Below are positions 39,241-64,000 of a DNA stretch of 64,000 nt, in pieces. The translations under genes and the position numbers were made by a program. This DNA comes from Auanema rhodensis (Eukaryota; Animalia; Nematoda). Position 1 is the first letter of the stretch; each line of letters opens with the position of its first letter. The notes beneath the pieces are model-generated. The model was not told where the DNA came from. It saw nothing but the letters and a program-made list of their open reading frames with translations, and did no database searches. The DNA lies in the NCBI GenBank assembly GCA_964057225.1, contig OZ059900.1, positions 26,474,001-26,538,000 of the forward strand. The letters are read 5' to 3'.

Positions 39241-39376
39241 CAGTTGCTAAAAACATACTTTTGAGGGCGTCAGCTGCTAAAATCATACTTTTGGGGGCGT
39301 CAGCTGTCAAAATCATATTTTCGGCGTCAGCTGTCAAAATCATATTTTCGGCGTCAGCTGTCAAAAATATACTTTT
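39241..39376. repeat. Subterminal 27-30 bp tandem repeats (about 4.5 copies; mirrored at ~53401-53536)
   Basis: CAGCTG(C/T)(T/C)AAAATCATA(C/T)TTT..GGCGT units start at 39241, 39271, 39301, 39328 and 39355. Confidence 0.9.
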
Positions 39377-39769: not shown

Positions 39770-40595
39770 TGGAACTCATATCGAAGGTTAATTCGATAAG
39801 AACGATATGAAATACAAAAGTTAATGGAACACATATCGAAAGTTAATTCGATAAGAACGATATGAAATACAAAAGTTAATGGAACACATATCGAAGGTTA
39901 ATTCGATAAGATCGTTAAAACAGGTGCACTGACCCACACAAGAACCACATGGCAAACGTTTTGTTCATAAAAATATGATAAATAGCTGTACACCACATGT
40001 ACCAAGTTGTCTAATATTTTCAAATTACATGAAAGAATAGTTTAAAGAACCTTTTTTAAAATTTTATATTAGTATATTCTAATATACTAACTCAATAAAA
40101 CACATATCGAAGGTTAATTCGATAGGATTCACAAACAATTGTGTTGTTTCCAATGGAACACATATCGAAGATTAATTCGATAACATCGTTAAAACAGGTG
40201 CGCTGCCCCACACATGTACCACATGGCAAAAGTTTTGTTCATAAAAATATGATAAATAGCTGTACAGCACAAGTACCCATAACGCTAAAGAATACTTACT
40301 ATGCCAAGGGGTCATGGGTATATAGTTTTTAGTATCAAAAATGTTAATGGAACACATATCGAATATCAATTCGATAAGATTGGTGAAACAGATACGTTGA
40401 CCTACAATGAACCAAATGGCAAAGCACTTGTTCATTAAAGTATAACAAATAGCTGTATAGCATATGCATCAAGATTTCTAATATTCTCAAATTACTTGGA
40501 AAGAAGAGTATATAGAAAAAGTTTTAGTGTGTATATTACTAATATTCTAATACCCTAACTCAAAGAACACATATCGATGATTAATTCGATAAGAT
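39770..40595. repeat. Seven copies of the dyad motif TATCGAA-N6-TTCGATA within 55-bp and ~200-270-bp repeats (mirrored in the right TIR)
   Basis: Motif starts at 39779, 39834, 39889, 40105, 40163, 40357 and 40572 (last copy TATCGAT). Confidence 0.88.
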
Positions 40596-40825
40596 TGTTG
40601 AAACAGTTGCGCTGACCACAACAATACATGCGTATTTATTAACAGCGGATTGGCAACTGCTACTGTTGACAGCTGTAATATGATACAATGTTGAGTGTTG
40701 GCAACATTGTTACGTGACAATAAAACAACTGACTGTTCTTGCAATGAAGTGTAATATAAATGTGTAAAATGAAATATGGATAACTACCTCTCAGAGTTTG
40801 CATAATTTTATTCTAACAAGATACA

Positions 40826-41238
40826 ATGGCTGCTAACAGGTTGTGTTTTTTCCTATCTTTTTTTTTTTAATTAAAATATTTATTTTCAGTTATAAGCGTG
40901 TATGTGAAGAGTTGGGGTTCGATTATGAGGAAATTTATCAACTCAGGTAATTTAACAATATTTTTAAAATATACATCTTTTTTTTTAGTAAGCGCATAAA
41001 ACTTACCGAGAGTGGTGGTGTTGAGCTGTGTGACCCCGCAATAACCACTTCCAATAGTGGTCCCTCGTCATCAAGGGTTATTGAAGTTATCACCTTGGAT
41101 GACAGCGATAATGAGTAAGCTATCATATAATGAAAAAGCATGACATTTTTTTTCAGAGAATGGAATCCCGAGATGCCATCAACTAGTGGAGAACAATTAG
41201 GAGGCGGTTCATCCTTCAACGATGTTTGTCAAATAAAG
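40826..41238 (+). pseudogene. Duplicate of pPolB exons 1-4 inside the left TIR (orphan 5' gene fragment)
   Basis: Exons 40826-40839, 40890-40946, 40989-41114 and 41157-41238, with GT-AG introns of 50, 42 and 42 nt, splice to an open 93-codon frame MAANSYKRVCEELGFD...EQLGGGSSFNDVCQIK. Confidence 0.8.
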
Positions 41239-41439
41239 GTACGAGCTTTTAACCTTTTTTTTTTTCATGTTACAATTCTTTTCACTCTATATCTTTTATT
41301 TGATTACATATCTTGAGCAATTTTGAATTCTGCCATCTATTTTTAAACAAATCATCATACATTTGGTGGCTTTTTGAAAAATAAAATAAAATCTGATCCC
41401 AAATCCATGCCATAATATCATTTATTAAATTTTTATTCA

Positions 41440-42160
41440 TTAAAATACACTTAAATTTAAATATTTTGATGCTCAAAAACTGACACATTTAAATATTTTG
41501 TATTTTTCAAATCATTTCACTCCATCTCTTTTATTTAATTTCATATTTTAAACAATTTTAAATTTTTACCACTACTTTATAATTTTTATTTATTAAACTT
41601 TTTAATCATTAAATTACACTTAAATTTAAATATTTTGATGCGCAAAAACAGAAACATTTAAATATTTTGTTTTTTTTTTTTCTAAACCATTTCACTCCAT
41701 CTATATTAAACAATTTTATATTTCTACCACTATTTCATAATTTCATTTTTTAAATTTTTAATCATTAAAAAAACATTTAAATTTCAATATTGTGATGCTC
41801 AAAAACTGAAACATGTAATTGATTTATATTTTCTAAGCCATTTCACTTCATCTCTTTTATTTAATCACATATCTTGAACAAATTTAAATTTCTATCACTT
41901 TTTCATAATTTCGTTTATTAAATTTTTAATCACTAAAAAACATTTAAATTTCAATATTGTGATGCTCAAAAACTGAAACATTTAAATATTTTGTATTTTC
42001 TAAACCATTTCACTTCATCTCTTTTATTTATATATATTTTAAACAATTTTATAATTCTACTATTATTTAATTTTTATTTATTAAATTTTTAAACATTAAA
42101 AAAAAAAAAATTGATGCTCAAAAACTGAAACATTTAAATATTTTGTATTTTTCTAATCGT
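41440..42160. repeat. Degenerate ~150-170 bp AT-rich tandem repeat; its mirror copy lies in the long pPolB intron at ~50620-51340
   Basis: Core TGATGCTCAAAAACTGAAACATTTAAATATTTTG recurs near 41468, 41637, 41794, 41960 and 42113. Confidence 0.75.
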
Positions 42161-42347
42161 TTTGAAACAAACTAAACATATATTTGAAAACATTTCAATT
42201 AAATAAAAAAAAAATAACGACTATAACAAACAAAGAGACATAATAATTTTAAGCAAAAGATGAAACAATTCATATATATTCTTAAAACTATTTTTATTTA
42301 AACTTTTAAAAATAAAAATAAAAAAAAAAAAGCATGTAAACTGTTAA

Positions 42348-43019
42348 CGTTTTTCCAACAGAAAGTTTATTCTGCACTTGCCCAAAGGTAACTATGCAAA
42401 TGGTGATGAAATAATACGCGGAATCAATGCTGGAAAAGAACAATTTATTGCTAGCAGCACTAAACCTCTTGAAGCTGAGGAAGAAGCACGTATAAAGGGT
42501 TTGATAGATAAAGATGAAGATGTGAAAAAGTGGTATAATAATCGACAAGCTGAGGCTAAACTTGTCAAGGAAATGCTGGCAGACGCCACGTTTCGATTTA
42601 ACAAAACACTACAACGCATAGAGTTTGTAACAAGTAAGCGGCTATTATTGAATGCAACACTCGGTGATGCTCTCGCATATTTTCTTGGCTTTGAGAATAA
42701 AATTATCAACGACACGTTAATAGCCAGGCGCCCCATTGATTTTTCAAATAACATTAATACAATGTATATATATTGTGATATTGTAGAATATTCCATTCTC
42801 GGTAATGTGAAAGCTAATTTACTTGCATGTTTACCTGTACCACCTTCCACCGAATTTGGTAAAATGATTGCCAAAACATTTAATCCTATTCGTTATGTAC
42901 CAATCACTAAGCAAACACTCGATACTATACGTATTGAAATTTTAGATGAATTCGGCCGCCCTATGCAATTTAATTATGGTTCTACAGTTGTTACATTACA
43001 TGTTAAAAATGTGAAATAA
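42348..43019 (+). pseudogene. Minor capsid protein (penton/PX-like), 5'-truncated at the TIR boundary
   Basis: C-terminal pattern MYIYCDIVEYSILGN..ANLL...F.PIRYVP....IRIEILDEFGRP..F..G..VVTLH, typical of Polinton minor capsids. The frame opens right after a TAA at the TIR junction, with no N-terminal ATG. Confidence 0.8.
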
Positions 43020-43123
43020 ATGTTTTATTCAACAGTTATACAAGACCACATTACGATTTTCGAAGGTTTAAAAGGTAGTTCAGCGCCGTTTTGTTCGATG
43101 CGCGGCTCGTGTTGTGAATATTC

Positions 43124-43489
43124 TCAGTTACTATTGCAGCGGCATCGTTTTGGTTCGGTTGACTGTACAAACTCCTCAGTTTTTTCAGAGGGTTCGCTGG
43201 TATCATTTCCATCACCATCTTTACCATTCGTTCCATTACTATTATGAAGACGCCGAATATGACGCTGACAATTGAATCTTGTTCCAAAAGTTTCACTACA
43301 ATAAGGGCACAAACGTCTACGAACACCATCCAAATGTCCATATTTTTGAATAAAGTCAGCATTGCTGATATAACTGTTACATACGGGTTGAATCCCGTCA
43401 TGTCTTTTTAATACGTGATCACTAAAATGCTTGGCTGATGAAAATATTTCCTTGCACGTAACACAATACTTGTTACATAAAAGTTCCAT
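43124..43489 (-). CDS. Small protein with two C2H2 zinc fingers (~121 aa from ATG at 43489)
   Basis: YCVTCKEIFSSAKHFSDHVLKRH and LCPYCSETFGTRFNCQRHIRRLH; basic PKRCR near the C-terminus. Confidence 0.75.
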   Translation of the reverse strand: MELLCNKYCVTCKEIFSSAKHFSDHVLKRHDGIQPVCNSYISNADFIQKYGHLDGVRRRLCPYCSETFGTRFNCQRHIRRLHNSNGTNGKDGDGNDTSEPSEKTEEFVQSTEPKRCRCNSN

Positions 43490-43747
43490 TAGAGGAAAAT
43501 AAAAAACAACCACACACAGTCAACTCACTTTTATATAATGAGTGGAATAATGACTAGTGTTGTACAAAAGCCTAGTCCCAGAGATATTCCTTTAATGAAT
43601 GGCACTGAAATACGTTTCAAAATCTTTTTGTACAGGGGTGTTGGCACAGATTGTTCCAACGTGTATCTTATACATAATTCACAGTGACAGGGAATATTCA
43701 TAACTGACCACCTAATGTAGCAGGTGACGTTTTAATGGCGAGGTTGA

Positions 43748-44203
43748 TCATATGCTAGATAATTTATAGTCGAATACTTTATGCATAAACGCTTTAATAA
43801 AGACATCATCGTTTTGTAATAGTTTAAAAAATGAACAAATGCTTTCAAATGTATTACCAGCTGACAACATTAGTATTACAAATATTGCATAACCACCACA
43901 AGTGTATTCAATTATGCGTTGTGGTTTGCAAGTATTAACTTTTACATTTTTATATTTGGCCAGATAATGACGAATGTACTTGTTCATTTTATAACCCAAG
44001 CTACAGAAAAAGTAGGCTTGATCATTACGTACAAAGATGACTTGCCAATGTGTGCCCGGTTTATCGTGTGTGTCAGTATTTACAACAAGTGCAAAGTTCT
44101 TTCGACGTGTTTTGGGTAGAGTATCCGCGCTAAATACACCGAGGAATAGTTTTCGAGTGATGCGGACAGATCGCAATAGTGACGCTATTTCAGACGAATA
44201 CAT
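43748..44203 (-). CDS. Adenain-like (Ulp1/C5-type) cysteine maturation protease
   Basis: FLGVFSAD, VVNTD...PGTHW (catalytic His), FFCSLG, PQ....TCGGY (catalytic Cys). Confidence 0.92.
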   Translation of the reverse strand: MYSSEIASLLRSVRITRKLFLGVFSADTLPKTRRKNFALVVNTDTHDKPGTHWQVIFVRNDQAYFFCSLGYKMNKYIRHYLAKYKNVKVNTCKPQRIIEYTCGGYAIFVILMLSAGNTFESICSFFKLLQNDDVFIKAFMHKVFDYKLSSI

Positions 44204-44253
44204 TTAGTAAAATGATCTAGTGTAACTTTTGTATTGCGCACGTGCGGTTCAAT

Positions 44254-44706
44254 ATGCCACACCTCCTTCTAGACTTGAACTCAATTCAATGGACAACACT
44301 TTTGAATCAACAAATGGGTGGGGCGCCATTTAGTGGAATGATGTTTCAACGTGGTATGCAGAGAGGTCATGGCCTGGGTGGTATACTGGCAACATTGGCA
44401 TCGTTTTTACCACGCATTATTCAATCACCTATAGCCCAAAATCTCATCAATGCTGGAAGGAATGCATTATCCAGTGCTGTAAGCAATAGTCCAGTTCTAA
44501 ACTCACCTCTTGGCGGCCAGTTGCTAAAAACTAGCAATGAAATTGTTGATGGGGTGCTCAAGGGCGATAATATCAAGCAAACTCTTAAAACAGCCGGCCG
44601 GCAGGCTATACGAGATCTTACCGGTTTGGGCAAGCGGCGACGACGCAAAACCACAAAACCTCATAAGCGTCTGTGCATAACTCGTGAGCGGTCGTATCGT
44701 ATTTAA
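44254..44706 (+). CDS. Small Gly-rich/basic Polinton virion (core-like) protein, ~150 aa
   Basis: QRGHGLGGILATLASF motif of the kind found upstream of Polinton MCP genes; basic C-terminus KRRRRK; its TAA abuts the MCP ATG. Confidence 0.7.
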   Translation: MPHLLLDLNSIQWTTLLNQQMGGAPFSGMMFQRGMQRGHGLGGILATLASFLPRIIQSPIAQNLINAGRNALSSAVSNSPVLNSPLGGQLLKTSNEIVDGVLKGDNIKQTLKTAGRQAIRDLTGLGKRRRRKTTKPHKRLCITRERSYRI

Positions 44707-46041
44707 ATGGCTAAATTGATAGATTCAAAATCAGCACAAGCACTTTTACCTAATATTAATTATAGTGACATACCGGCGTCGGCATTAGGTGTTGAATCCA
44801 CTCGTACTGTACAAGTTCCTTTAAAAAATACTTTTCTTCCTCAAGGACCATGGGAATTTGTTATAGCCCAAAATTCCAAATCATTTCTTAATCTGAGAAG
44901 GTGTTGGTTGAATGTAAAATTCAAAATTGTAACCACAAACGGTGATCCAGTACCAGACAACCTTGTTTTTGCACCATGCCAACAATTTGCAGCCAGTTTG
45001 ATACACTCGTATCATTTAAAAATTGGTGATGTTAGCGTGTATGACTCTACCGTAAATCATGCCTACAAAACATATATTGAGAATATTCTAATGTATAGCA
45101 ACGATGTTAAAGAGAGCAAACTTGCCATATCAGGCTATCATGCGGATAGATATATAGATAATGCAGCCAGTCCTGGCTTTAGAGCGCGACAAGGGCTTGT
45201 TAAAAATGGCATATTGTGTGAGATGGCTGCTCCCATCAGTATCGACTTATTCAATCAGGAACGACTGTTTGTAAACTATTCAAAAATGGAGCTAACTGCA
45301 TATCCAAACCGTGATAATTTCTTAATTGACACACTTGGATGGAATAATGAAAGCAAGGATGCTGCAATGAAGGAGGAGTTTCCAAACCTGAAAATAGATA
45401 TCAACGATGTGCACTTGCTTATTCAAGAGTTTGATCTAAACGCTGGATTAGCTATGGCTATAGAAGATAAACTTGTAAAGGAACGAATACACTACCCCAT
45501 GACGTCAGTGAAAATGCGCTCTTATTTCATAGAAGGAGGCCGTTTGGATTCACCCAATAACATATTATTCACGTCGCATACACCGAAACGTGTTGTAGTA
45601 GGTCTTGTCGGCGCACACGCCTATAATGGTACTTTTAAACATTCGCCATTCAACTTTAAACCGTTTGAATTGAAAAATATATACTTGACGCTCAACAATC
45701 GGGTAATACCTACCCGCCCTTATAATTTAGAATGGCGTTCTTCCTATGCCACAGCATATATTGACATGTTGGAGGGTTTGGGTCTTGGTCGTACAGATTC
45801 ATCCAATGGTATTACACCAGCAATGTATAAAACCGGCTTCACATTTTTTGTATTTGATATTTCACCGACTGTACACTCGTCCGAGTTATTTGATGTTATA
45901 CGACAAGGTAATGTGGCCCTGAAATTGGAATTTGGTCAACAAACGCCGCAAGAGGGTTTATATGCTATTGTTTATGCAGAATATGACTCTATTCTTTCAA
46001 TTGACAACAATCGTGCTCCATATATTGATACCAGTTTGTAA
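44707..46041 (+). CDS. Major capsid protein (PY, double jelly-roll), 444 aa
   Basis: Size, position and motifs (GPWEF, HAYKTYIENIL, DLFNQERL, PKRVVVGLV...AYNG..KHSPFNF, GFTFFVFD, IVYAEYD) match Polinton MCPs. Confidence 0.9.
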   Translation: MAKLIDSKSAQALLPNINYSDIPASALGVESTRTVQVPLKNTFLPQGPWEFVIAQNSKSFLNLRRCWLNVKFKIVTTNGDPVPDNLVFAPCQQFAASLIHSYHLKIGDVSVYDSTVNHAYKTYIENILMYSNDVKESKLAISGYHADRYIDNAASPGFRARQGLVKNGILCEMAAPISIDLFNQERLFVNYSKMELTAYPNRDNFLIDTLGWNNESKDAAMKEEFPNLKIDINDVHLLIQEFDLNAGLAMAIEDKLVKERIHYPMTSVKMRSYFIEGGRLDSPNNILFTSHTPKRVVVGLVGAHAYNGTFKHSPFNFKPFELKNIYLTLNNRVIPTRPYNLEWRSSYATAYIDMLEGLGLGRTDSSNGITPAMYKTGFTFFVFDISPTVHSSELFDVIRQGNVALKLEFGQQTPQEGLYAIVYAEYDSILSIDNNRAPYIDTSL

Positions 46042-46179
46042 TGTATGTAATAAACTCTTTAAAACATTTGATGAGAAGAATAAAATTTATTAATACAACT
46101 ATACATAAAAATCTATAAATACAACCATATACAAATATACACGCGATAATAAAATTTATAAATTCAAATATATTAAAAA

Positions 46180-49100
46180 TTATTCACAATAACCATAGGG
46201 TAAAGTACTAAAATCGTCTAGATAACAAAGTTTATCCATTACGACCTTGGTACTCTTTGTCATGTCCATCGTGGATATGGCACCAAGCTGCCTCTTTAAT
46301 AACGTTGTTTTGGTTTTTAAAACCAATTTTTCTCCATCCATCACGAGTCCTCGAACCAATCGCTCCATACTTTGATAGTTTACCACGGTGGCTGCCGTGT
46401 GGTCCAGCGTCTGTAATTTTAAAAAGTTTCTCAATAATATATTTTTATACTTACCACTCCCTTTGCCTTGGTGATATACTTGACCTGACCAGCTGCATTT
46501 ACTAGCTCATAACTATAAACTTTTGCAGCTGGTGAAACAAATTTGGTCATTGACCAACCATCGGGTATTTCTGAGGTTAGTTTACCTAACCATTCACCCT
46601 TCATATCCTCAATTGGATCAGGCTGATCGAGGCATTTTAAATAAATTAGAGAATCGGTGTCTAAATGATGTACGTTTAAATTGTATACAAAGTATAAAAT
46701 TACCTGTATACACCAAGTTCTTTCCAATTTTTTCCATTGCCTTATACAATAGTAGCCTTGCATGAGCGGTTGTATAAGCCGCTATGGCTACATTTGTAAA
46801 CGGCGCTGGTGCCAGGTGTGAGTCTTCTGGCACTGTTGTACAGTACGCCACATCGTCCACAATTTTGAAGCCCGTGAGTTCCCTTGCAGGATCAGTTATG
46901 ATCCTACCAATTTCAGGATCCTCAACACCAATAATCTTGGTTTGGGCTTTATCCGGTCTTTGACCCATTTTACCCCATACACTATAAACAAATTTGTAAA
47001 TTTTTATTTTTAAAAGTTTACATACCTATTCAGCTGTAGTTTGGCAATGCTACGCATGGCCGCATTCTTTTCAATTTTGTTGCTCTCCAGAGCAACACCA
47101 GTGTTCTCCTCGTGCTCTTGGAGATATTTTAGCTGTAAAATTCTATTTAATGCCATACTTTTCATGACACATACCTTTTCAGCCTCTGTCATATTTGGCT
47201 TAGGCCAGCCCGATGCCTCTTGCTTAATTTTTATGTACTTTTGTACAAAATCCTTGAATAGGCCTCCTTGCTGCCATTCATCCCAGTGCCAAACCTCATA
47301 AACATGAAGCACTTTGTAGCCACGCTGTATGGCACATTCGAGCTCTACATGCGTTACAGTCAGATGCAGCTTTCGAGCGTCTTCATCATCTTGGTGCGGG
47401 CATGTTACATTTTTGCCTCTGTTTGCACATGTGCGGCAGTTTGTAAAAATTAATTTACCGCCTATGCGTGTTCCTAATACAGGATACAACAAATTTGTGG
47501 GTGCAAGCACGTCACATTTCACAAGGCCCTTGTATGGGCAGCATGCCTCAAAACTCTCAAAGCCCTCAGTAATCACTTTAGGATTACCCACAGGGTAATA
47601 GGCATCAAATGCCGTTACATATGGATAAAGTGAACAAAAGTCCACATACTCTAGTGAGTATCTATCCGAAGCTTGGGCCAAAAGCTTATATGTTTGAGTT
47701 CGGCCGCCGGTGAAGGCATCTCGAGGTGCCAATCGAGTTACAACCTCAGTGTCCTTCATAAAATTTGCCATTTGCTCATTTGATGACATTTGAGCAGTAA
47801 TTTCGTGTTCCCACACAGTGGTTACACTAATGCCCTGGCTTTGAATAGCCTCAAGCCTTTTCATGGTTTTTTCATAAACCTAAATGTTTCGGTTAAAAAT
47901 GATTTAAAAAAGTATTGGTTACCTCTTCCATTGTTTCACCATTTCTGCCTGGTGCAATAGCAGTCTTGTTGGTGCACTGGGGGCAACCATGATAAATACA
48001 GCCATTAAACTACAAAATTTTTCATTTTTTTTTACATTTATTACAAATTACTCACCTCATAGCCGTGATTAGCCACACTGTCATAAGCATCAAGTAGATA
48101 GCGTTGGCCATCTACTCGCACAACAAATTCACCACCATTAAGCTTATGCATTAATGGGCGGCCTAATCCGTGTTCTAGCCATTTAATGTATTTTATGGCA
48201 ATTATACTCTGCTTCTGGCCGGCATAATAACCAGTCTCAGGCAGAATACCCACTTGGTTCTCTTTAATGTGGTTCATTTTCAACTGTAATATACTAGTTT
48301 TGAAAATGCTTGTATTTTAAAAAAAAACTTGCCTGGAATAAAGAGAAACTGGCAAATGTCATACATTGTATGACAGGATTCCAGCCAGTGGTGGCGGTGG
48401 CCAACTTCATGTACACTTTCATACAGTTGGTTAAAATACGGACATCTGTCCTACAATATTCCAGAAGCTCCTCATCAAAATCAAACACACTTTGATTACG
48501 CTCCTCATACCAAATATTGAATGAAGCTAGGTCTTCTGCTTTCATTCTAGCAGTACAATAGTAATGCTTTGGTGGCAAGGATGGTAGCACTTTGCCATAA
48601 TTTATTGGGTGGTTAAAGAGGTATGGGAATTGTCCTTTACTCATATCAGGTACACCAAATGCCTTGGGTAACGCTGATAAGGGTAAAGGCACTAGTAAAT
48701 AACTATCTTTAAAACATAAATGGTTAATGTTTTGACCTCTTAAAGGCTTGACAACCATGCTAATAATCTTGGTCCCATTTAAAATGGGGTCAGGATATAT
48801 TCCACGGTTTATCAGCCTAGACACCAAGAAATGTATGTCAAAGCGCGACCCGTTGTGCGCAATCAAAATTGCATTATCATTCTCAGAAAAGTTGAGTAAC
48901 CAATCAAGGAAACGATCTGTTACAGACCATTCACTATCACCTTGTTGGTACCCAAAATGGCCCTCCTTGGTTGTGCATTTCTCACAGGAATTGGCATCTA
49001 TACAACTTTCACAAAATTTGTTATACACAACCATATTGGGCCATTGTTCATCTGCATATTCATGAACATTTGTGCCGTTTTTTAACACAACTGTTTCAAA

Positions 49101-51952
49101 GTCATAAAATATAATCTTAAACAAGTAAGCATTACACTTGTAAAGATGTTAAATACAAACCTTGAACTTTTCTTGCTTCTTTTTTAGCTGAGCCTTCTTC
49201 TTGTCGTTAGGTGGAACCCAACAACAAGAGTGCTCTTCAGGCTTTGTCTGACCGCACTTTTTGCAGAATTTTTCATTGCAATTGTGCGGTCTATCAGCAC
49301 GGACCATGTGATAGTGATCACACGCCACACATGTCTGAATTTAAGCTTGTTATGTACAACTTTAAATTTTCACAAAATACCTTGAATTTTCGGCAGGCTT
49401 TTCGCAAATGCCTATCGAAGCATTGTTGAGTTTTAAACAAAACTCTACAACTATCACACCTCACGCTACTCTCAACCACATTCCCCATCGCATTACAATT
49501 ATAGGTGTGGCATTTTTTACATTTGGCTTTACATCTATGCAACACTGTATTGTAAGATAACTTACAGTGTTGACATATAATACCATCAAAAATTTTCGAA
49601 CGACTACCAGCTGTAATACAATCATAGTGATTATTTCGGTAACCTAGTGTTACCAATTTGCTAGCCGCTTCATTAAATATTTTCTGGATAGTGTACATAC
49701 GCTGTCCAGGCGGTCTAGCATATACTACAAACTTATAGTTTGTATTACAGCTGGCAATAATGTTTAAATGAATTAAATTATAATTTGGTAAATCTACAGA
49801 AATACCACACCTATTTAATAAATTGATATGGTGTGGCTGATTTGGTAATAAGATGTAATTGCGACGAAGGTTTTGCAGCCTTCGCTTCTCATCGCCATCT
49901 TCAGTAGCCAACTCGTCAGCTTTCCACATTCCCACAACTGCTGATCTAGCCAGACAATGTGAGTCAGTGTTGGCAATGGTTCCAGGTATTTTGAGTTCGG
50001 GGTCAAAATAAAACCCGACTCTACCTTCACCAGGCATCAGGCTTGGCTGCGCTGGCCTTTCATCAAACACATACATCTCAATATTCATTGCCTGGCTGAT
50101 CACAGCCTCTCGTTTTGATTGCTGCACCTTGCTGATGGCATTCATAATGGCTACGCCATCCAGATGCTCCCTTCTACGAAAGTCCATAAATATGGAGCCC
50201 TTTTCAAAGGAAGGGTGCTCAATTGATAAACAAAATAAGGCTTTTTGCTTATCAGGCACACCGCTTTCAGCAAGACAACGATCAAGGAATTCGTTGAATA
50301 ACCGCGGCATGATAACATGCATTGGTTCATCAACATTTTCCAAGTGTGGGAACGTGAGCGATCGAACGACCACGTTGGTAAAACGACCGGTGCGTTTTAT
50401 GCGCCGGTGTGACCACTATAATAAACAACATTTATAACAGTTTACATGCTTTTTTTTTTTATTTTTATTTTTAAAAGTTTAAATAAAAATAGTTTTAAGA
50501 ATATATATGAATTGTTTCATCTTTTGCTTAAAATTATTATGTCTCTTTGTTTGTTATAGTCGTTATTTTTTTTTTATTTAATTGAAATGTTTTCAAATAT
50601 ATGTTTAGTTTGTTTCAAAACGATTAGAAAAATACAAAATATTTAAATGTTTCAGTTTTTGAGCATCAATTTTTTTTTTTTAATGTTTAAAAATTTAATA
50701 AATAAAAATTAAATAATAGTAGAATTATAAAATTGTTTAAAATATATATAAATAAAAGAGATGAAGTGAAATGGTTTAGAAAATACAAAATATTTAAATG
50801 TTTCAGTTTTTGAGCATCACAATATTGAAATTTAAATGTTTTTTAGTGATTAAAAATTTAATAAACGAAATTATGAAAAAGTGATAGAAATTTAAATTTG
50901 TTCAAGATATGTGATTAAATAAAAGAGATGAAGTGAAATGGCTTAGAAAATATAAATCAATTACATGTTTCAGTTTTTGAGCATCACAATATTGAAATTT
51001 AAATGTTTTTTTAATGATTAAAAATTTAAAAAATGAAATTATGAAATAGTGGTAGAAATATAAAATTGTTTAATATAGATGGAGTGAAATGGTTTAGAAA
51101 AAAAAAAACAAAATATTTAAATGTTTCTGTTTTTGCGCATCAAAATATTTAAATTTAAGTGTAATTTAATGATTAAAAAGTTTAATAAATAAAAATTATA
51201 AAGTAGTGGTAAAAATTTAAAATTGTTTAAAATATGAAATTAAATAAAAGAGATGGAGTGAAATGATTTGAAAAATACAAAATATTTAAATGTGTCAGTT
51301 TTTGAGCATCAAAATATTTAAATTTAAGTGTATTTTAATGAATAAAAATTTAATAAATGATATTATGGCATGGATTTGGGATCAGATTTTATTTTATTTT
51401 TCAAAAAGCCACCAAATGTATGATGATTTGTTTAAAAATAGATGGCAGAATTCAAAATTGCTCAAGATATGTAATCAAATAAAAGATATAGAGTGAAAAG
51501 AATTGTAACATGAAAAAAAAAAAGGTTAAAAGCTCGTACCTTTATTTGACAAACATCGTTGAAGGATGAACCGCCTCCTAATTGTTCTCCACTAGTTGAT
51601 GGCATCTCGGGATTCCATTCTCTGAAAAAAAATGTCATGCTTTTTCATTATATGATAGCTTACTCATTATCGCTGTCATCCAAGGTGATAACTTCAATAA
51701 CCCTTGATGACGAGGGACCACTATTGGAAGTGGTTATTGCGGGGTCACACAGCTCAACACCACCACTCTCGGTAAGTTTTATGCGCTTACTAAAAAAAAA
51801 GATGTATATTTTAAAAATATTGTTAAATTACCTGAGTTGATAAATTTCCTCATAATCGAACCCCAACTCTTCACATACACGCTTATAACTGAAAATAAAT
51901 ATTTTAATTAAAAAAAAAAAGATAGGAAAAAACACAACCTGTTAGCAGCCAT
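46180..51952 (-). CDS. Protein-primed family B DNA polymerase (pPolB), 14 exons, ~1370 aa predicted
   Basis: Introns at 51889-51938, 51790-51831, 51622-51663, 50416-51539, 49335-49380, 49116-49160, 48284-48332 (GC-AG), 48010-48055, 47880-47922, 47133-47174, 46982-47025, 46661-46703 and 46411-46454 give one continuous frame. It contains ExoI YDFET, ExoII HNGSRFD, ExoIII YCRTDV, Vsr-like EFNGCIYHGC, motif A DFCSLYP, motif B KLQLNSVWGKMGQ, motif C YTDTDS and C-terminal LPYGY. Confidence 0.9.
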
Positions 51953-53576
51953 TGTATCTTGTTAGAATAAAATTATGCAAACTCTGAGAGGTAGTTATCC
52001 ATATTTCATTTTACACATTTATATTACACTTCATTGCAAGAACAGTCAGTTGTTTTATTGTCACGTAACAATGTTGCCAACACTCAACATTGTATCATAT
52101 TACAGCTGTCAACAGTAGCAGTTGCCAATCCGCTGTTAATAAATACGCATGTATTGTTGTGGTCAGCGCAACTGTTTCAACAATCTTATCGAATTAATCA
52201 TCGATATGTGTTCTTTGAGTTAGGGTATTAGAATATTAGTAATATACACACTAAAACTTTTTCTATATACTCTTCTTTCCAAGTAATTTGAGAATATTAG
52301 AAATCTTGATGCATATGCTATACAGCTATTTGTTATACTTTAATGAACAAGTGCTTTGCCATTTGGTTCATTGTAGGTCAACGTATCTGTTTCACCAATC
52401 TTATCGAATTGATATTCGATATGTGTTCCATTAACATTTTTGATACTAAAAACTATATACCCATGACCCCTTGGCATAGTAAGTATTCTTTAGCGTTATG
52501 GGTACTTGTGCTGTACAGCTATTTATCATATTTTTATGAACAAAACTTTTGCCATGTGGTACATGTGTGGGGCAGCGCACCTGTTTTAACGATGTTATCG
52601 AATTAATCTTCGATATGTGTTCCATTGGAAACAACACAATTGTTTGTGAATCTTATCGAATTAACCTTCGATATGTGTTTTATTGAGTTAGTATATTAGA
52701 ATATACTAATATAAAATTTTAAAAAAGGTTCTTTAAACTATTCTTTCATGTAATTTGAAAATATTAGACAACTTGGTACATGTGGTGTACAGCTATTTAT
52801 CATATTTTTATGAACAAAACGTTTGCCATGTGGTTCTTGTGTGGGTCAGTGCACCTGTTTTAACGATCTTATCGAATTAACCTTCGATATGTGTTCCATT
52901 AACTTTTGTATTTCATATCGTTCTTATCGAATTAACTTTCGATATGTGTTCCATTAACTTTTGTATTTCATATCGTTCTTATCGAATTAACCTTCGATAT
53001 GAGTTCCATTGATTAACCCATAAGAGGTACGCTGAACATATTGATTACCTTTTAAAAATATTTAAATAAATAAAAAACAATATATATGAGAAATAATTTA
53101 TTCAGTTTTAAACATACAATTAAAAAATATATAAATATTAAAATACATTTAAAAAGAAATATTATTAAAAACACATTTAAAAAGAAACAATTAAATAATA
53201 ATATTTACAAATACAATTTAAAATATATATAAATATTAAAAATACATTTAAAAAGAAATAAGTTTAAAAATATTTACAAATACAATTAACAAATATATAA
53301 ATAATAAAAATTCATTTAAAATAATACATTAAAAAATAATTTTAAAAAAAAAATCATGCATTTTGATCCATGCGCAGGCTCGAGAGCCTGCCTCGGGAGG
53401 AAAAGTATATTTTTGACAGCTGACGCCGAAAATATGATTTTGACAGCTGACGCCGAAAATATGATTTTGACAGCTGACGCCCCCAAAAGTATGATTTTAG
53501 CAGCTGACGCCCTCAAAAGTATGTTTTTAGCAACTGTTTGGGGGCGTGGTTAGTAAATTCGGCATGGCTCTCTACT
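50435..53576 (-). repeat. Right terminal inverted repeat (~3142 bp); carries the native pPolB 5' exons and upstream region
   Basis: Reverse complement of 39201-42346, with only a couple of visible SNPs and homopolymer length differences. Confidence 0.96.
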
Positions 53577-56211: not shown

Positions 56212-56610
56212 TGTAATATCCTTAAGTTGGATATTAATATTCCATGATTGACCCTTAGATTGATGTGTTGTAAAAGAAACAATAAGATTTGAGGAAGAGA
56301 GAAAGATTTATTATAAATAAAAAACATTTAAACAATAAACAAATAAAGATAAAGATAAGTCCGCCAACTGAAGATTCAGTTGAATGGCAAGCTTATATAG
56401 CGAATGTTATCAGCATTTTCCACGAAAGGTTATAAGTTGTCAATGACAATTATAACTATCTCAGAAAATGCTGAGGCTGCAAAATATAACTGATAACATA
56501 ATACACTAAGACAAGAAACTAGAATTATAAAATATAAAATATAAAACACAGAATAAAGAAATACATAAAAATTATAGAAAGAATAAAGTAAAGAATTATA
56601 AAGTATAACA
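56212..56610 (-). repeat. Putative 3' LTR (~399 bp) of element 2
   Basis: On the - strand it reads TGTTATA...TATTACA, starts 57 bp after the pol stop, and has a TATA-like CTATATAAG (~56392-56400) and AATAAA (~56308-56313). The partner LTR is outside the window, so the inner boundary is inferred. Confidence 0.75.
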
Positions 56611-56667: not shown

Positions 56668-59600
56668 TCATAATGTTGCAGCAAGCTTTTTGATGAGATC
56701 CTTATGTACTTTTCTCATCTTTCCTTGACTCATTTCCAATTCCACATATGAGTTGTATACGCCTGTAATTTTGAACGGTCCATTATAAGTGGGTCGCAAT
56801 TTGCCGTGAACCGTCATATCCTTCAATAATACCATTTCACCTATTTCAAATATACGTGATGCTATTCGGTTACTATTATTCAGCCGATTTTGTTGTTCAA
56901 TTGATTTTAATTGAATTTTTTCTTGAATAGAATCCCAGGTATTTTTCCGGTTCTCATTTCTTTCCAATAATTCGTCATCTTCAGGAGAATTTAGATGAGG
57001 TTGTCCTGGTAATTGACGGTCCATAGGTAGGCGTGCGTCTCTTCCAAATAAAGCAATGTATGGGCTGATTCCGGTAGTTGTACTTGGGATTGTATTTAAC
57101 GCGAATGTGATTTTAGGTAATTGTGAGGCCCATTGAGAGACACGGTTTTCAGCACAAGTGGATAAACATTCCTGGATGGTTCGATGTAGTCGTTCCACTT
57201 GACCGTTTGTATTTTTGTGATATGGCAGAGAGAAGGTTTGTACAATTCCAAATTCGTTGCACATTAACTTGAATTCTTTAGATATAAAATTTCCTCCATT
57301 GTCAGACACGATGCTCACTGGTGGTCCAAAAATGAAGACGAAATTCGTCAGGAACTTTCGGACTGTTTCTTCGGCATTCTGTGTGCGTAAAGGTATGCTC
57401 GTTATCCATTTTGAAAAAGCATCTTGAATAGAAAGAATATATTTAAATCCATTAGTGCTAGGGGAAAAAGGTCCTGTCACATCCATATGAATCCTATCAA
57501 ATGGTTTTTGTGGGGTAACAAACTTTCCATATGGTTCTCTCGTTGTATCATGTTGATTTATTTTCCTTTTTGCGCATGTCAGGCATTGGCTGACGATCTC
57601 TTTCGCATCTTCCATCATATTTGTCCAATGGAATCTTCTTGATAATGCTGCATGTGTTCTTTTGATTCCTTGATGCGCTCCAATTCTTGCGTCTTCATGA
57701 AAAAGTTTCGCAAGTACTTGATTCAATGTCTTTTGTTTTGGAATCATAATCCTTGGAGAAAGATATTGTTTGTTAGGTCGAGCATGCAAAACTCCGTCGA
57801 TAACAATATATCTATCGCTATTAATCTGTTTAGGTTGTTCCGTTAACATATCAGCAATAGTTTCCTTAATCCATGGTGTTCCTTGTTGTAACTGAATTAG
57901 TTTGTCGGTATCCAGAGTTTCCACATTGGTTACATTTATGAGATAGTTGATGGTTTCTTGGATATCCGTTAAACTTGTTGTTAGCGTTGTCTTCTGTAGC
58001 TTCGGTTTAGGACCATCGTTAGCTTCGTTGCCTATGTATCTGGATAGTGCATCACATACACTATTCATACGTCCTGGACGGTACATAATCACAATATCAT
58101 ATTCCTGGATCATTAACTGATATTTCGCTAGTCTTCCAATAAGATCTCTTCTACTCATTAGACTGGTTAGTGGTCGATGATCCGTTATTAGCTTAGTTGA
58201 CGTGCCTAAAACATATGTGCGAAATTGTTGTAATGCGTAGACGAGTGCCAAAGCTTCTAATTCGATAGGTGGGTATTTTCTTTCTGTAGGTGAGAGCTTC
58301 CTACTTGCGAACGCAACAGGGTGTAATCCATTTCCTGTATCTTGTAGTAAGACTGCTCCAATTGCAATAGTACTAGCGTCACTTTCAATAACAAAAGGTG
58401 CTCCATTTGTTGGTGGCTTCAGAACTGGTGCTGTGCATAGAGCTTTCTTGAGAGTCTCGAATGCTTTTTCACGTTCTTCCGTCCATTCGAAATCTTGATC
58501 CTTGTGTGTGAGTTGATACAACGGTTCGGCTATTTTGGCGTAGTCTCTGATGAATCGCCGAAAATAATTTGTCATTCCAAGGAATGAACGAATAGCGGTG
58601 ACCGTTTTGGGAGTTGGAAATTTCTTAACGGCTGTAATTTTTGATGGATCAGGTTGTATTCCATCACGACCAATTATAAATCCAAGAAATTTAACTTGTG
58701 TAGCTGCAAATTTGCATTTACTTAGTTTTGCTTTCATTCCTAATCCTTGTAAAGCTTGTAACACTTCTTCTATATCCTCCAGATGTTGTTCAGCTGTGTT
58801 TGATATAATGAGTAGATCATCCAGATAAACAAAAAGTCGACATTTTACTTGATTTTGCAAATAGCGAACAGCTGATTGAAATGTATGTGGAGCTCCACAG
58901 AGACCCATCGGCATTCTGCAATATTGATAAACTCCTGATGAGGTCACAAATGCAGTGAGGTGACGGTCTTCTTCACGTAAAGGAATTTGAAAAAATCCCG
59001 ATACGAGATCGATGTTTGTGAAGTATCGAGCTCCTGCAGTGCTGTCGATTATTTCTGGTATATGAGGAATAGAATAAGTCTGTTTCTGTGTGACACTATT
59101 GAGTGCACGGAAGTCCGTTACAAAGCGGAATGAGTTGTCTTTCTTCTTGACTAAGACGACTGGACTTGTAAAACTTGATGTTGATGTTTCTATTACTCCT
59201 TGGTCCAGCATTTCTTTTACTTGACGTTCAACTTCATCCTGTTTACCCAAAGGAACTCGATATGATCGAGATTTGGGCAGGTCCATATCGGTTCTCAAAG
59301 TGATTGAATGTTCTATTGGTCCTTTGAATAATCCAATGTTCCGATCTTCGTTAAAAAAAGCATTTTTGAATCTTCTCAACATAGTTTTGAGATTTTGACG
59401 TTGATTTTTAGATAGATCCGTTGATTCGAAATTTAAGTTATCGAAAGGATTCTTCTCAAAAATAGGCAATTTATCTGACCAATCAGCTTCTGGTGGAATA
59501 TAGTCCGGTATATGTGGGATTCCAATTTCTTCTGCTATTTTTCCTTTTCCAATAATGGTGTTTCCTGTTAACTTCACCTCATAATTTGCTGTATTGATGG

Positions 59601-62600
59601 CGAATATTGTGAGTGGTGAAGTCTTGATAGCAGTAGGTGTGAATTGAATAGGTCCATTTCCACATCGTATAAGAGCGTATTGTTTTGGTTGTAGTTCTTT
59701 TGCCAATTGTAGACGAATCATAGCTTTAGTTCGGGGTGGAATAATAGATTCTCTAATGTTTATAATTGAAACGGTGTCTGAACTGATGCGAAAGCTCTTC
59801 TGGTTAGCGGATAATAATGGTAGAAAATGGTTTCCAACTATTAATTGCTTGCGTAGAGCTTGTAGAGAAGTTGTTATTCCTTTTTCTTCTAATGCTTTCA
59901 TGATGTCCAAACCAAGTAACATTTCAGTAGGACAATGTTTATCCTCAGAGATTAAAAATGTGTGTGAAAGATGGTATCCAGCAATAACAATGTCCAACGT
60001 TATTGTACCCAGAAAGTTGAATATTGATCCATTTGCTGCGGTGGCAGAGATTTTAGTTGAGTTGAAATTCTCTTTTCCTAAATAGCGTACTGATGATTCC
60101 TTCAAATATGAAACAGATGCTCCGCTATCCCATAAAGCTACGAGTCCTCTGCCTTCTGCTTCAATTCTTATATATGGGAGTTCTCTTTTGTTCGTTGCAC
60201 AGCATCCAACAAAAGGTATAATAATAGGAATAAAAGTGATGACAGTAGGAAAATATCTTCGAATAGTTTCGTCGTCGGCTGGAACATCGATGTCAGCGTT
60301 GAGTAGTTCGTGTTGTTCAACTGCATTCACATTTAAGATAGGAACTTTCTCTTTGATATAAGATACAACAATAATGTATAATGCTGATCCAAAGATTAAT
60401 ATAACTATCATAACACCTGCAGAGATAAACATTCTGTTGAGGGATCCAGCAAAGAAATCAACTCCTCGTTCCCATAGTGATGATGCAATATTTTGAGTAG
60501 AACTAAAAAGTTCGTTACTTTTTGTAAACCATTCTGATAAGCCTGGCAAATTCGCTTGATTCGTGATAACTCGTAGAAAATTTCTATGAGGATTGGTAGC
60601 GAAAATGTGTCCATATGTTAGGCTTATTGTTCTAACTAAGTTTTCATCGGTGATATTTTCATAAAGATTTCTTTGTGAAAATCGAATGGCTGCTAGATCG
60701 GGATACTGATCTGAACCAATGTTTAAAGCAATTACGTTTGTAACTCCGTTGAAGGATTTCCATTCTCCATCCTCTTTCCATATATCATTTTCTACTGTTT
60801 CACATGGAATTTCAGTTCCATATGCTTCCAAATCTGCTGAATCTTGAGGTGCAAAGTAGAGGCGGTCATCATCCGTGATGACGGGTGTTTCTAAATAACA
60901 CTTATCTTTGTATGTGTGGTTGCGATAAATGTGAATTGGTTCTATTGGCTGACAGGTTGAAACCCGAATAAGATTCCGTCCAATTATTCGAGCCACTATA
61001 TCATCTCGTTGCATAATAGATCTGATAGCAATCGTAGGATTGATATTAAATATAGCTTGCCATGTCTTAATAAGTTCAAGTTGAGCATGACATATGCTGT
61101 GATGTTGATGATGAAATTCTTCGACCAGTATGGTTCTCATTCGTTCAAATCCATAGTTGAGTTTGTTGATGGTAGTTAATGCATCTCGATGTCGAAGTAT
61201 AGTATTCTGGTGATCTGTTAAGTGAGTGCCGAATAATTCTTGAGCTTTCTCTATGCTTCCAATCATGGGTTGCATTGATGTCATCCCTTGAATAGTACTA
61301 ATTGTTTGTTTTGTAGTAGATGATGTATTTACAACAGGTTTTGAGGTAGCACTAAGAAATCGTGCAGTTGGTGTAGTTTTAGTGGTGATAGAGCGACTGA
61401 ATACTCTTTTTGTAATCTCTTCAGGTGCTGGTTTTGAAAACCATGACATTAAATCAGTTAATTGTTTAGCGTCAATATTGATGTTACGGCTGTAGAGATC
61501 TTCTTTATTCGAAGGCATCGGTATTCCAAAAATGGTTTCTCGGTTTCTGAGTGTCCAGTTATCCAACAGCTTTAATTTCATTTCATATACTTGATCTTTC
61601 ACTTGTCGTTGCATAAAATGACTATGAAAGAACAGTTTCATTCGATAATATTCTATCAGTTGAGGTTGAGAATACTGATAGCGTAGTTCACGAAGTAATT
61701 CTTTTGCTTTATATACCACAGAACGTGGATCTCCAAATGTGAAGTTGAGATGGTTTTGATATACTGTGAATATCAAAAATTCGAGTGGTGGCACATATTC
61801 TGTTTCGGATAAGATTGCAGGTATTTGTATCAATTCCCATAATTTATCTCTTGCAACCGAAATTGTAGAATTGCCTGGTTTAACTATTCTTTTTATATAA
61901 TTGATAGGAAGTCGGTGTGCTAGTTGACCGATGACAAAACTAGGCTCCATTTGTTCGATCCACATTTTTGTAATCATCTTGCTTTCTTCTCCTCCTAGAG
62001 CATGTAGTAAGAGAATATTCGGATCGCGGAAGTCTTTTAAATTTGCCCAGTAATCTATAGTATGATCAGTAATGTTCAAAATATGGACAGCTGACAGCAA
62101 AAATTGATGATATCGAGCAATAACAGTCAGGTTCTGATATTCGTTGCTAACTGATTGATAGTGATACCAGTTATGAATATATCGTATGGTATTTCCGCCA
62201 GACGTGACAGTATATCTAGCAAACGGTAGATCCAATATTTGAATAGGAGTTAACTTATATTCCATTTCTGAGCGAAATGACGCAATTAAGGATGAATTTG
62301 TTGAACGTTTATAGCGTTGGCGTGAAGGATCCATTTGATTATCCAAATAACTTGTTAGATCCAGTAAAGAATATGCATGCGGATAATCAATAAACGAGAC
62401 AAGAGTCTCAGTAGTGGATTCGAAAATTGGTGAAGAAAAACAAGATTGAGTTGTAGTAGATGCTGAGGTGTTGGCTAAGACAAGTGCTGTTTCTAGACTT
62501 GATATTAGCAGTGTTTGATCTCCAAGTATTCCATACAGAGGTCCAATACGTGTGTATTGGCATGGTGCTCGGGGTGTGGGTGGTTTCCAAACTACTGAAC

Positions 62601-63609
62601 CATCTCCAAATGTACAGCTTCCCATTTGAGCTTTACAGCCTTCGGCGTTGACAATTAAGTCAGATACAATAGTATTGTCCTTTAAATTTGTAATAACTCC
62701 TCGCTCCATCACAAATTGAGTTAAGTTGGCGCATTGAGTAAAACTGAAGAAACGTTCCGGTTCATATACTGGCTTAGGAGCTTCATATGTAAGTGGATTA
62801 GCGCTCAACAGTTTTTCATTTTTCCATTTCTTGTCTCGAGCAGCTATACGGCATTCTTCTACAGATACATATCCATTACCAATGATGGTGTCGTTGCTTT
62901 CTCGGAACCAAAATTGATCCGTTACACATAATCGATAGATGCGTGTATAACACTTCCACGCTTCCCATGTTACGACGGTTTGTTTAGGAATGAACAATTC
63001 AACGTTAACTTGATGAGCTTGTTGAATTGCTTTCCGTTGGCATCCTGTTATCTCTGGTGGTGTCATCAGAATTCCTCCTTTATAAGCTAAACATAGTTGA
63101 TATGAAGCATTCACAGTGGGAAGCAGAAATGTGCAGATTATTGTTGTGAGCAGGAATGGTAATGCAATAGTATTTATATTGAATCGAGGTTTCCATCGTC
63201 TTTGATTGCCTTGATTCTCTCTTGGATAATTGTCGCGATTATTCCTGGCAAAGTTGTCTCGATTTTCTCTTTGATAATTGTTGCGAGGTTCTCTCGAATG
63301 GTGATTACTCTCCATTGAGTAGTTGTTTCCATAATTTTGTCGAGGGCCAGAGTTCCTGCTGAATTTATTTTTGAAATTCTTCCAAGGGTTTCTTGAATTG
63401 TTGCCATTGTTCCGTTCGAAATCTCGTGGCTGCTGATGGTTCCTTTGGTTCCTATTTTCCTTCATGGTGATCTTCTGAACTGCAGAGATCAACTCTTGCA
63501 TAGTTGAGTTTTCTTCATGCTGTTTTTTTATAGTTAGCACGAATTGCTTCTTCAAAACGTGCTGTCCTTTTTGCTTCCTCATAAGTCTTCGGATCTTTTC
63601 CTTGAACAA
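56668..63609 (-). CDS. env-pol: Polyprotein: Gag tail, signal peptide, class III (gB-like) fusion glycoprotein, TM, protease, RT, RNase H, integrase
   Basis: Signal-like IALPFLLTTIICTFLLPTVNA; Cys-rich ectodomain with N-glycosylation sequons; furin-type RYKR; gB-like INPTIAIRSIMQRDDIVARIIGRNLIRVSTC and CYLETPV; TM FISAGVMIVILIFGSALYIIVVSYI; LWDSGAS; IDLVSGFFQ/YLDD; ESDAS/TDHRPL/DALSR; HHCC and D,D(35)E; GPF. The biologically relevant part starts near 63528, after the frameshift. Confidence 0.92.
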   Translation of the reverse strand: MFKEKIRRLMRKQKGQHVLKKQFVLTIKKQHEENSTMQELISAVQKITMKENRNQRNHQQPRDFERNNGNNSRNPWKNFKNKFSRNSGPRQNYGNNYSMESNHHSREPRNNYQRENRDNFARNNRDNYPRENQGNQRRWKPRFNINTIALPFLLTTIICTFLLPTVNASYQLCLAYKGGILMTPPEITGCQRKAIQQAHQVNVELFIPKQTVVTWEAWKCYTRIYRLCVTDQFWFRESNDTIIGNGYVSVEECRIAARDKKWKNEKLLSANPLTYEAPKPVYEPERFFSFTQCANLTQFVMERGVITNLKDNTIVSDLIVNAEGCKAQMGSCTFGDGSVVWKPPTPRAPCQYTRIGPLYGILGDQTLLISSLETALVLANTSASTTTQSCFSSPIFESTTETLVSFIDYPHAYSLLDLTSYLDNQMDPSRQRYKRSTNSSLIASFRSEMEYKLTPIQILDLPFARYTVTSGGNTIRYIHNWYHYQSVSNEYQNLTVIARYHQFLLSAVHILNITDHTIDYWANLKDFRDPNILLLHALGGEESKMITKMWIEQMEPSFVIGQLAHRLPINYIKRIVKPGNSTISVARDKLWELIQIPAILSETEYVPPLEFLIFTVYQNHLNFTFGDPRSVVYKAKELLRELRYQYSQPQLIEYYRMKLFFHSHFMQRQVKDQVYEMKLKLLDNWTLRNRETIFGIPMPSNKEDLYSRNINIDAKQLTDLMSWFSKPAPEEITKRVFSRSITTKTTPTARFLSATSKPVVNTSSTTKQTISTIQGMTSMQPMIGSIEKAQELFGTHLTDHQNTILRHRDALTTINKLNYGFERMRTILVEEFHHQHHSICHAQLELIKTWQAIFNINPTIAIRSIMQRDDIVARIIGRNLIRVSTCQPIEPIHIYRNHTYKDKCYLETPVITDDDRLYFAPQDSADLEAYGTEIPCETVENDIWKEDGEWKSFNGVTNVIALNIGSDQYPDLAAIRFSQRNLYENITDENLVRTISLTYGHIFATNPHRNFLRVITNQANLPGLSEWFTKSNELFSSTQNIASSLWERGVDFFAGSLNRMFISAGVMIVILIFGSALYIIVVSYIKEKVPILNVNAVEQHELLNADIDVPADDETIRRYFPTVITFIPIIIPFVGCCATNKRELPYIRIEAEGRGLVALWDSGASVSYLKESSVRYLGKENFNSTKISATAANGSIFNFLGTITLDIVIAGYHLSHTFLISEDKHCPTEMLLGLDIMKALEEKGITTSLQALRKQLIVGNHFLPLLSANQKSFRISSDTVSIINIRESIIPPRTKAMIRLQLAKELQPKQYALIRCGNGPIQFTPTAIKTSPLTIFAINTANYEVKLTGNTIIGKGKIAEEIGIPHIPDYIPPEADWSDKLPIFEKNPFDNLNFESTDLSKNQRQNLKTMLRRFKNAFFNEDRNIGLFKGPIEHSITLRTDMDLPKSRSYRVPLGKQDEVERQVKEMLDQGVIETSTSSFTSPVVLVKKKDNSFRFVTDFRALNSVTQKQTYSIPHIPEIIDSTAGARYFTNIDLVSGFFQIPLREEDRHLTAFVTSSGVYQYCRMPMGLCGAPHTFQSAVRYLQNQVKCRLFVYLDDLLIISNTAEQHLEDIEEVLQALQGLGMKAKLSKCKFAATQVKFLGFIIGRDGIQPDPSKITAVKKFPTPKTVTAIRSFLGMTNYFRRFIRDYAKIAEPLYQLTHKDQDFEWTEEREKAFETLKKALCTAPVLKPPTNGAPFVIESDASTIAIGAVLLQDTGNGLHPVAFASRKLSPTERKYPPIELEALALVYALQQFRTYVLGTSTKLITDHRPLTSLMSRRDLIGRLAKYQLMIQEYDIVIMYRPGRMNSVCDALSRYIGNEANDGPKPKLQKTTLTTSLTDIQETINYLINVTNVETLDTDKLIQLQQGTPWIKETIADMLTEQPKQINSDRYIVIDGVLHARPNKQYLSPRIMIPKQKTLNQVLAKLFHEDARIGAHQGIKRTHAALSRRFHWTNMMEDAKEIVSQCLTCAKRKINQHDTTREPYGKFVTPQKPFDRIHMDVTGPFSPSTNGFKYILSIQDAFSKWITSIPLRTQNAEETVRKFLTNFVFIFGPPVSIVSDNGGNFISKEFKLMCNEFGIVQTFSLPYHKNTNGQVERLHRTIQECLSTCAENRVSQWASQLPKITFALNTIPSTTTGISPYIALFGRDARLPMDRQLPGQPHLNSPEDDELLERNENRKNTWDSIQEKIQLKSIEQQNRLNNSNRIASRIFEIGEMVLLKDMTVHGKLRPTYNGPFKITGVYNSYVELEMSQGKMRKVHKDLIKKLAATL

Positions 63610-64000
63610 TTATGCCTAAATCAGCGTTCAATCCATTTAAGAAAGCTGATCTTAATATGAGCTCTCTTTCTCGATCAGTTGGGCTCATAATACTGGAAGC
63701 CATTTCTTCCAAGTATGAGGCAAACTGAGTAACAGTTTTCTCTCCTTGCGTCGAGCGTAGCAACTTCGCGATCGTGAAATTCCTTTCCGTGGCAGGGCAA
63801 AGTAACTCTGCCAATTGTGAAACAAGGTCTTTCCAAGGTCCTCGTTCACGAATTTCGGAAGGAATCGAGTTATATGCAGAGATCGCAGAATCATTCTGCT
63901 GAAGCAGCAGAGGAAGAAGAAAAATTCTTTCAATTACCGAAAGTCCCGCAGCATTCGCGAATCGGTTAAATATATCGATGTACGATCGAAAGCTTCGGCT
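63515..64000 (-). CDS. gag: Gag capsid region of element 2 (partial; open from the window edge to TGA at 63515)
   Basis: Continuous frame SRSFRSYIDIFNRFANAAGLS...WKDLVSQLAELL...QGEKTVTQFASYLEE...AFLNGL...PKTYEEAKRTA, a retrotransposon capsid pattern. Confidence 0.85.
   Translation of the reverse strand, partial: SRSFRSYIDIFNRFANAAGLSVIERIFLLPLLLQQNDSAISAYNSIPSEIRERGPWKDLVSQLAELLCPATERNFTIAKLLRSTQGEKTVTQFASYLEEMASSIMSPTDRERELILRSAFLNGLNADLGIIVQGKDPKTYEEAKRTARFEEAIRANYKKTA

Follow-up and report, generated by a model that had tools for sequence, protein, structure and literature searches.

We consider it very likely that the minus strand at the end of the window (the whole 64,000-nucleotide stretch of Auanema rhodensis DNA analysed here) carries a Ty3/gypsy LTR retroelement whose genes follow the already published order GAG-ENV-POL and whose envelope, similar to herpesvirus glycoprotein B (gB), is likely part of one membrane-spanning polyprotein. 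The evidence comes from the continuous reading frame and its domains, the predicted fold of the envelope, the hydropathy of the element and its relatives, and sequencing-run contigs that cover the same locus.

Architecture of the element

The listing of open reading frames over the 64-kb window contains a stop-free frame of 2313 codons on the minus strand (56668-63609). The domains within it follow the order Gag tail, signal-peptide-like stretch, ectodomain, transmembrane (TM) helix, aspartic protease (PR), reverse transcriptase (RT), RNase H and integrase (IN). All element features described below lie on the minus strand unless otherwise indicated. An earlier note on this DNA had described an unbroken frame from the Gag tail to IN with intact catalytic motifs, and both the frame and every motif were found. 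The 920 open codons of env have a log10 probability of about -28 of arising by chance.

The pol part begins with the aspartic protease at 59875..60198 (DSG at aa 1161; Pfam gag-asp_protease, aa 1149-1238), followed by the RT core at 58672..59151 (YLDD at aa 1595; RVT_1, aa 1487-1646, E 7.9e-35) and RNase H at 58099..58485 (DAS at aa 1744 and TDH at aa 1809; RT_RNaseH). The integrase, with zinc finger, DDE core and C-terminal part, extends up to the stop codon at 56668..57729 (CxxC 2009, HMDV 2041, SDNG 2102 and VER 2138; Integrase_H2C2 and rve). Upstream, the Gag capsid domain lies at 63515..64000 in an open reading frame of its own (Retrotrans_gag, E 1.9e-5), and its 5′ end is beyond the window. 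The PR-RT-RNase H-IN order and an upstream capsid of the Retrotrans_gag type are traits of Ty3/gypsy elements. The basic, N/Q/R-rich Gag tail (aa 37-147, 63169..63501; K+R 0.21, N+Q 0.32) has no CCHC knuckle, although 8 of the 28 relatives that join gag to env do have one. A 3′ LTR of 399 bp with TG...CA ends was placed at 56212..56610, where it adjoins a satellite and where contigs have loose ends. No second LTR copy was found within the 64-kb window, and the 5′ end of the element lies beyond it.

The surroundings of the element are themselves repetitive. A 168-bp tandem satellite occupies window positions 1-56211; its roughly 205 copies, which are 96-100% identical, add up to 34.7 kb, and all three mobile elements of the window are embedded in it. 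One is a Maverick/Polinton-like element (39201-53576) with terminal inverted repeats of about 2.9 kb, pieces of DNA_pol_B_2, an adenoviral-type protease and several genes in fragments. The other is a second Ty3/gypsy element on the plus strand (19616-26698), which has CCHC, PR, RT, RH and IN, has no env, and carries an in-frame stop at its junction near 22784.

The envelope as a predicted class III fusogen

Between the signal-like stretch and the TM helix, the env ectodomain measures 895 aa. It had been called a Cys-rich ectodomain of about 900 aa, a description that fits both ends and fails for the middle: 10 cysteines fall in aa 168-435, none in the 355 residues of aa 436-790, and four in aa 791-1060. 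By eye, the eight cysteines of domains I and II are as in the Nematoda_C1 rows Kluz_1, Clat_4 and Aave_1 (3 of the 15 rows displayed).

The N-terminal half (62410..63105) corresponds to domains I and II of a gB-like fold, for which fusion loops are predicted (pLDDT 81-98, structural match). A furin-type site, RYKR, was located by motif scan at aa 432-435 (62305..62316). It is followed by a Cys-free, mostly helical insert of about 360 aa with a Ser/Thr-rich stalk at its end (61225..62304, from the model and the relatives), which separates domain II from the domain III helix. The C-terminal half (60421..61224) comprises a long domain III helix, domain IV and the membrane-proximal region, as indicated by PF24664, PF00606, the gB profile and the model. 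Pfam places Monjiviricetes_fusion at aa 797-954 (E 1.3e-11), and Glycoprotein_B matches weakly (E 2e-4).

The fold was approached by structure prediction. From the env sequence alone, the model was of low confidence (pLDDT 33.5) and a PDB search gave no match. A monomer model built from a 47-sequence alignment reached a mean pLDDT of 66.9, with 356 of 893 residues below 50; its two ends are mostly above 80, and the insert and membrane-proximal part are low. With this model, Foldseek against the PDB placed herpesvirus gB on top (HSV gB, E 3.7e-11), with low global TM-scores of 0.16-0.25, and against BFVD it returned rhabdo-like, nyami- and chu-like glycoproteins, a nyavirus glycoprotein ranking third. 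The best 50 rows from VIA-align were all gB, prefusion EBV gB being aligned over 384 residues (Z 12.0, rmsd 5.6). A profile of the env alignment searched against sequences also matched gB (E 2.5e-15), and four more entries named 'Glycoprotein' matched its N-terminal half at E of about 1e-3. The class III fold looked for in the ectodomain was thus recovered by profile, Foldseek and VIA-align, the latter two on a predicted model, and the env ectodomain is predicted to be a class III fusogen of the herpesvirus gB type.

Membrane topology and candidate protease sites

Signal and TM segments were assigned by hydropathy only. The internal signal-peptide-like stretch (aa 148-168, 63106..63168) has its hydrophobic part at aa 148-166 (63112-63168, KD 2.14), and the single TM helix lies at aa 1064-1082 (60364..60420, KD 2.75); the peaks coincide with the signal-like stretch (~63108-63171) and TM (~60355-60432) of the earlier note. 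By the same measure, 25 of 28 gag-env relatives have a signal-like stretch ahead of env, and 26 of 26 env-PR relatives have one strong TM behind it. The cytosolic linker between TM and protease (60199..60363) contains a VNAV motif (aa 1094) and a proline-rich hydrophobic stretch. This extra hydrophobic stretch (aa 1120-1138), upstream of PR in the window ORF, was considered as a second TM and rejected as unconserved, with only 2 of 26 relatives reaching the same threshold. Because the signal and the TM recur and the second stretch does not, a conserved single-pass topology, with cytosolic Gag and Pol flanking a luminal Env, is supported by the hydropathy of the relatives; it is the arrangement that had been proposed from the window sequence.

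A short motif, [IV]N-x-[IVL], occurs just before the signal and again just after the TM. It was found before the signal in 15 of 28 relatives (expected 1.0; 0 of 500 shuffles) and after the TM in 6 of 26 (expected 1.2; 0 of 500 shuffles), and a luminal control showed no enrichment (6 of 113, expected 3.9). The enrichment is not independent, since the motif was picked by eye from the same related sequences, and we treat these motifs as a lead to candidate sites of the element protease.

Relatives and the insert after the furin site

An exhaustive protein search yielded 223 homologs at E<=1e-3, and the best 150 of these were probed with pieces of the window. Among the 150 listed, env is followed by pol in one protein in 44, gag by env in 28, and all three occur in one protein in 13; pol precedes env in one. 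Relatives with the same order, which the earlier note had proposed to look for elsewhere, therefore exist. Of 20 proteins scanned with Pfam, 12 long ones of gypsy type were selected, and these bore out the order. Four scanned relatives (P0029, P0069, P0075 and P0149) are BEL/Pao elements with env last; since their homologous env stands after integrase, the env family is present in two retroelement groups at two positions. Two relatives, P0007 and P0038, have at least two aspartic-protease domains downstream of env. Searches for close relatives gave almost nothing: word-index protein searches returned one homolog in one case and none in another, and a scan of metagenome and viral contigs found no related loci. 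In an RT-RH tree of 20 rows of unnamed homologs, the window element pairs with P0008 (55% identity); this pair and one other clade are the 2 of 17 inner branches that are well supported, and the tree is otherwise weakly resolved.

The spacer between the two halves of Env is about 396 aa in the window element, compared with a median of 39 among the 90 homologs with both halves, 26 of which have at least 150 aa. In the relatives, furin-type sites lie near the start of most long spacers. The insert-bearing env aligns with P0002 at 29% identity over 664 columns, insert included, and a helical motif of the insert is common to P0002, P0013, P0008 and P0005, which makes 4 of the 29 other long spacers, against 0 of 560 shuffled controls. 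The inserts that other relatives have at this Env position are unrelated. Look-alikes of the insert sought in the ESM Atlas were confined to sub-0.9 leads, none of them informative.

Comparison with known elements

Chary and Hayashi (eLife 2026, PMC13524379) describe elements of Nematoda, Bryozoa and Platyhelminthes with the order GAG-ENV-POL and a gB-type env; 36 nematode elements are listed there, and Sacco et al. 2022 (J Gen Virol 103, doi 10.1099/jgv.0.001739) is cited for nematodes. Their Nematoda C1 'errantiviruses' (HSV/gB-type ENV) share with the window element a Ty3/gypsy pol, an env between gag and pol, and a gB-type ectodomain between signal peptide and TM, the latter two recognised in the window by hydropathy only. 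In Burro, a giant gypsy element of planarians, a single polyprotein includes env, which is read in frame after gag and before pol (Arkhipova and Yushenova 2019, PMC6431247). The architecture had been regarded as not standard and possibly new, a view that the available text of these two papers overturns, as the order is already published for nematodes and is in frame in Burro. The words 'polyprotein' and 'in-frame' are absent from the main text of PMC13524379, and topology, cleavage and long inserts are not among its subjects; that paper may thus contain no description of the processing model or of the insert. The element is an added member of the published GAG-ENV-POL group with gB-type env, and its gene order is not new.

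The nematode endogenous retroviruses (NERVs) of Sacco et al. 2022 are reported to have a continuous gag-env-pro-pol ORF in chromadorean nematodes, with a metavirus-like RT, an env like the glycoproteins of Nyamiviridae, and accessory ORFs. In the window element the frame is continuous from the Gag tail on, with a capsid junction that differs between the window and other runs, and a nyavirus glycoprotein ranks third among the BFVD matches of its env, as would be expected of a NERV. The portion of the element that the window contains showed no such accessory ORFs. Burro, as described in the available text, differs in having an ORF of about 4,900 aa with many accessory domains, a length of 30 kb and an env of the gypsy Env/F-like type (PMC6431247). 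Atlas virus, a hookworm BEL/Pao element, is likewise a nematode element with a single polyprotein and a captured viral fusogen, but, in the text available, it has the order Gag-Pol-Env, a class II phlebovirus-like Gc and a place in Belpaoviridae (Merchant et al. 2022, PMC9094657). BEL/Pao elements with a gB/chuvirus-like env (Tas and the four relatives named above) have a homologous class III env; unlike the window element, they carry it after integrase and have Pao peptidase and DUF1759. An assignment of the window element itself to BEL/Pao was rejected, as Pfam found neither Pao peptidase nor DUF1759 in the window and env precedes pol. Cer1 has no such env according to the available text of PMC10309623, and no mention of env was found in that of PMC11118728. 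The literature search found no further paper reporting the gag-env-pol order.

The capsid junction, a Gag-only family and antisense RNA

It is important to note that the capsid ORF (63515-64000) is in a different frame from the long ORF and is ended by a stop codon in the window copy, so that in the window the Gag tail alone shares a frame with env-pol. The claim that Gag is in frame with env and pol accordingly holds for the tail and not for the capsid of this copy. Eight runs were compared, and six of them, from four studies, cover the junction; contigs in all six are unlike the window at that point, and their differences fit one continuous frame. In runs X5 and X7 the difference is present in part of the depth only. 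The junction contigs may merge the deleted family with the full-length one, and the window itself may derive from one of the runs. Because the contigs of all six covering runs differ there, the break is probably peculiar to the window copy or its assembly, and the window copy itself may be defective or mis-assembled. The 16 listed differences between runs and window are too few and too selected, by codon position, to judge selection.

The whole element stretch is covered in 5 of 5 DNA runs, although the depth of contigs does not measure copy number. In run X1, single contigs span 60216-63336 (gag tail-env) and 57212-60245 (pol), with overlapping ends. Contigs of X1, X2, X5 and X7 end at 60162-60245, just upstream of the protease, which suggests another variant branching there.

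A diverged derivative that has lost env and nearly all of pol was also detected. Its deletion corresponds to window 57000-63252, with the junction at a 6-base microhomology, and, by eye, it would code for Gag alone and end before the signal stretch. Contigs of 5 of 5 DNA runs and of 1 of 3 presumed-RNA runs contain it. It is not a splice product.

No sense-strand joint skipping env was seen in contigs of the eight runs, which are no proper splicing test. The three presumed-RNA runs have zero cover over env and are uninformative on expression. On the plus strand, an RNA antisense to integrase has three short GT-AG introns (46, 43 and 46 nt; contigs, 56939..57281). The 43- and 46-nt introns are skipped in contigs of the presumed-RNA runs X12 and X13 (one study) and in 0 of 5 DNA runs; a third intron of 46 nt is likely, given a 14-nt loose end and canonical ends. 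These antisense spliced contigs span window 56922-57408 (+). One exon, of approximate bounds, has stops in all three frames, and the RNA is therefore probably non-coding. Introns as short as these (43-46 nt), together with the by-eye match of the cysteines of domains I and II to published nematode rows, point to a nematode host.

Proposed mechanism and alternative explanations

In the model that we propose, the Gag part would be translated in the cytosol and at first be tethered through the signal. The internal signal would start translocation into the ER, and signal peptidase would free the N-terminus of the ectodomain. The TM would then stop transfer, leaving PR-RT-RH-IN in the cytosol, tethered to the Env tail. 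The element protease would cut at the [IV]N-x-[IVL] motifs that immediately precede the signal and follow the TM, and so set Gag and Pol free where Env gathers on the membrane; after a furin cut behind RYKR, the insert would stay with the half of Env that is anchored in the membrane. Budding would yield enveloped particles, which would fuse with neighbouring (germ) cells. The Gag-only deletion family could be an extra supply of Gag or a mere parasite of the system. Env and Pol would be equimolar at synthesis only, and the Gag-only family could shift the ratio in trans.

In a different reading of the same element, Gag and Env-Pol occupy separate frames, and a programmed ribosomal frameshift in the A-rich junction links them, with Gag made in excess. 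An excess of Gag is usual among retroelements, Ty3 and retroviruses included, and the capsid ORF of the window does stop at 63515 while overlapping the long ORF in another frame. However, that break is the point at which all six covering runs depart from the window, capsid and env share one protein in 28 of the 150 homologs listed, and the break precedes the RNA-binding Gag tail, so that a frameshift would leave Gag without it; we regard this reading as highly improbable. Almost empty searches for close relatives might instead point to a viral glycoprotein gene that was captured in frame on a single occasion, or to an assembly chimera. The chance of either appears negligible, being refuted by the overlapping X1 contigs, the full cover in all five DNA runs and the 44 of 150 listed homologs with env followed by pol; that last count also answers the earlier concern that the insertion of env was unique to this copy.

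More weight, though still on the unlikely side, is given to spread inside germ cells only, with env kept and folded, either as a by-stander or for cell-to-cell transfer in which no free infectious particles are formed. The family without env and nearly all of pol, found in every DNA run, is in keeping with such a life style, and the available text of PMC13524379 gives the transmission mechanism as unknown outside Drosophila. Against it stand the 920 open codons of env and, in hundreds of relatives at less than 50% identity, the retention of its cysteines, its furin site and its TM; together they imply that env has long been under selection as a membrane protein. The membrane-spanning polyprotein described above remains our preferred reading. 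A bolder extension of it, which we offer as speculation and hold to be doubtful, is that, in a sub-lineage, a new domain, folded, mostly helical and borne on a mucin-like stalk, was grafted into the linker of gB just after the furin site as the receptor-binding head of a stand-alone class III fusogen; together with the Env-flanking protease sites and a Gag-only helper family, this would amount to a flavivirus-like ER assembly of a retroviral particle, which is absent from the papers compared.

Significance of the element

Two open issues could be addressed with this element, namely the processing of a gag-env-pol polyprotein and the way in which a gB-like protein acting alone, without gH/gL, finds its target. 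As handles it offers candidate cleavage sites for the protease on either cytosolic side of Env, the large and conserved insert at the furin linker, and a naturally occurring derivative with Gag only.
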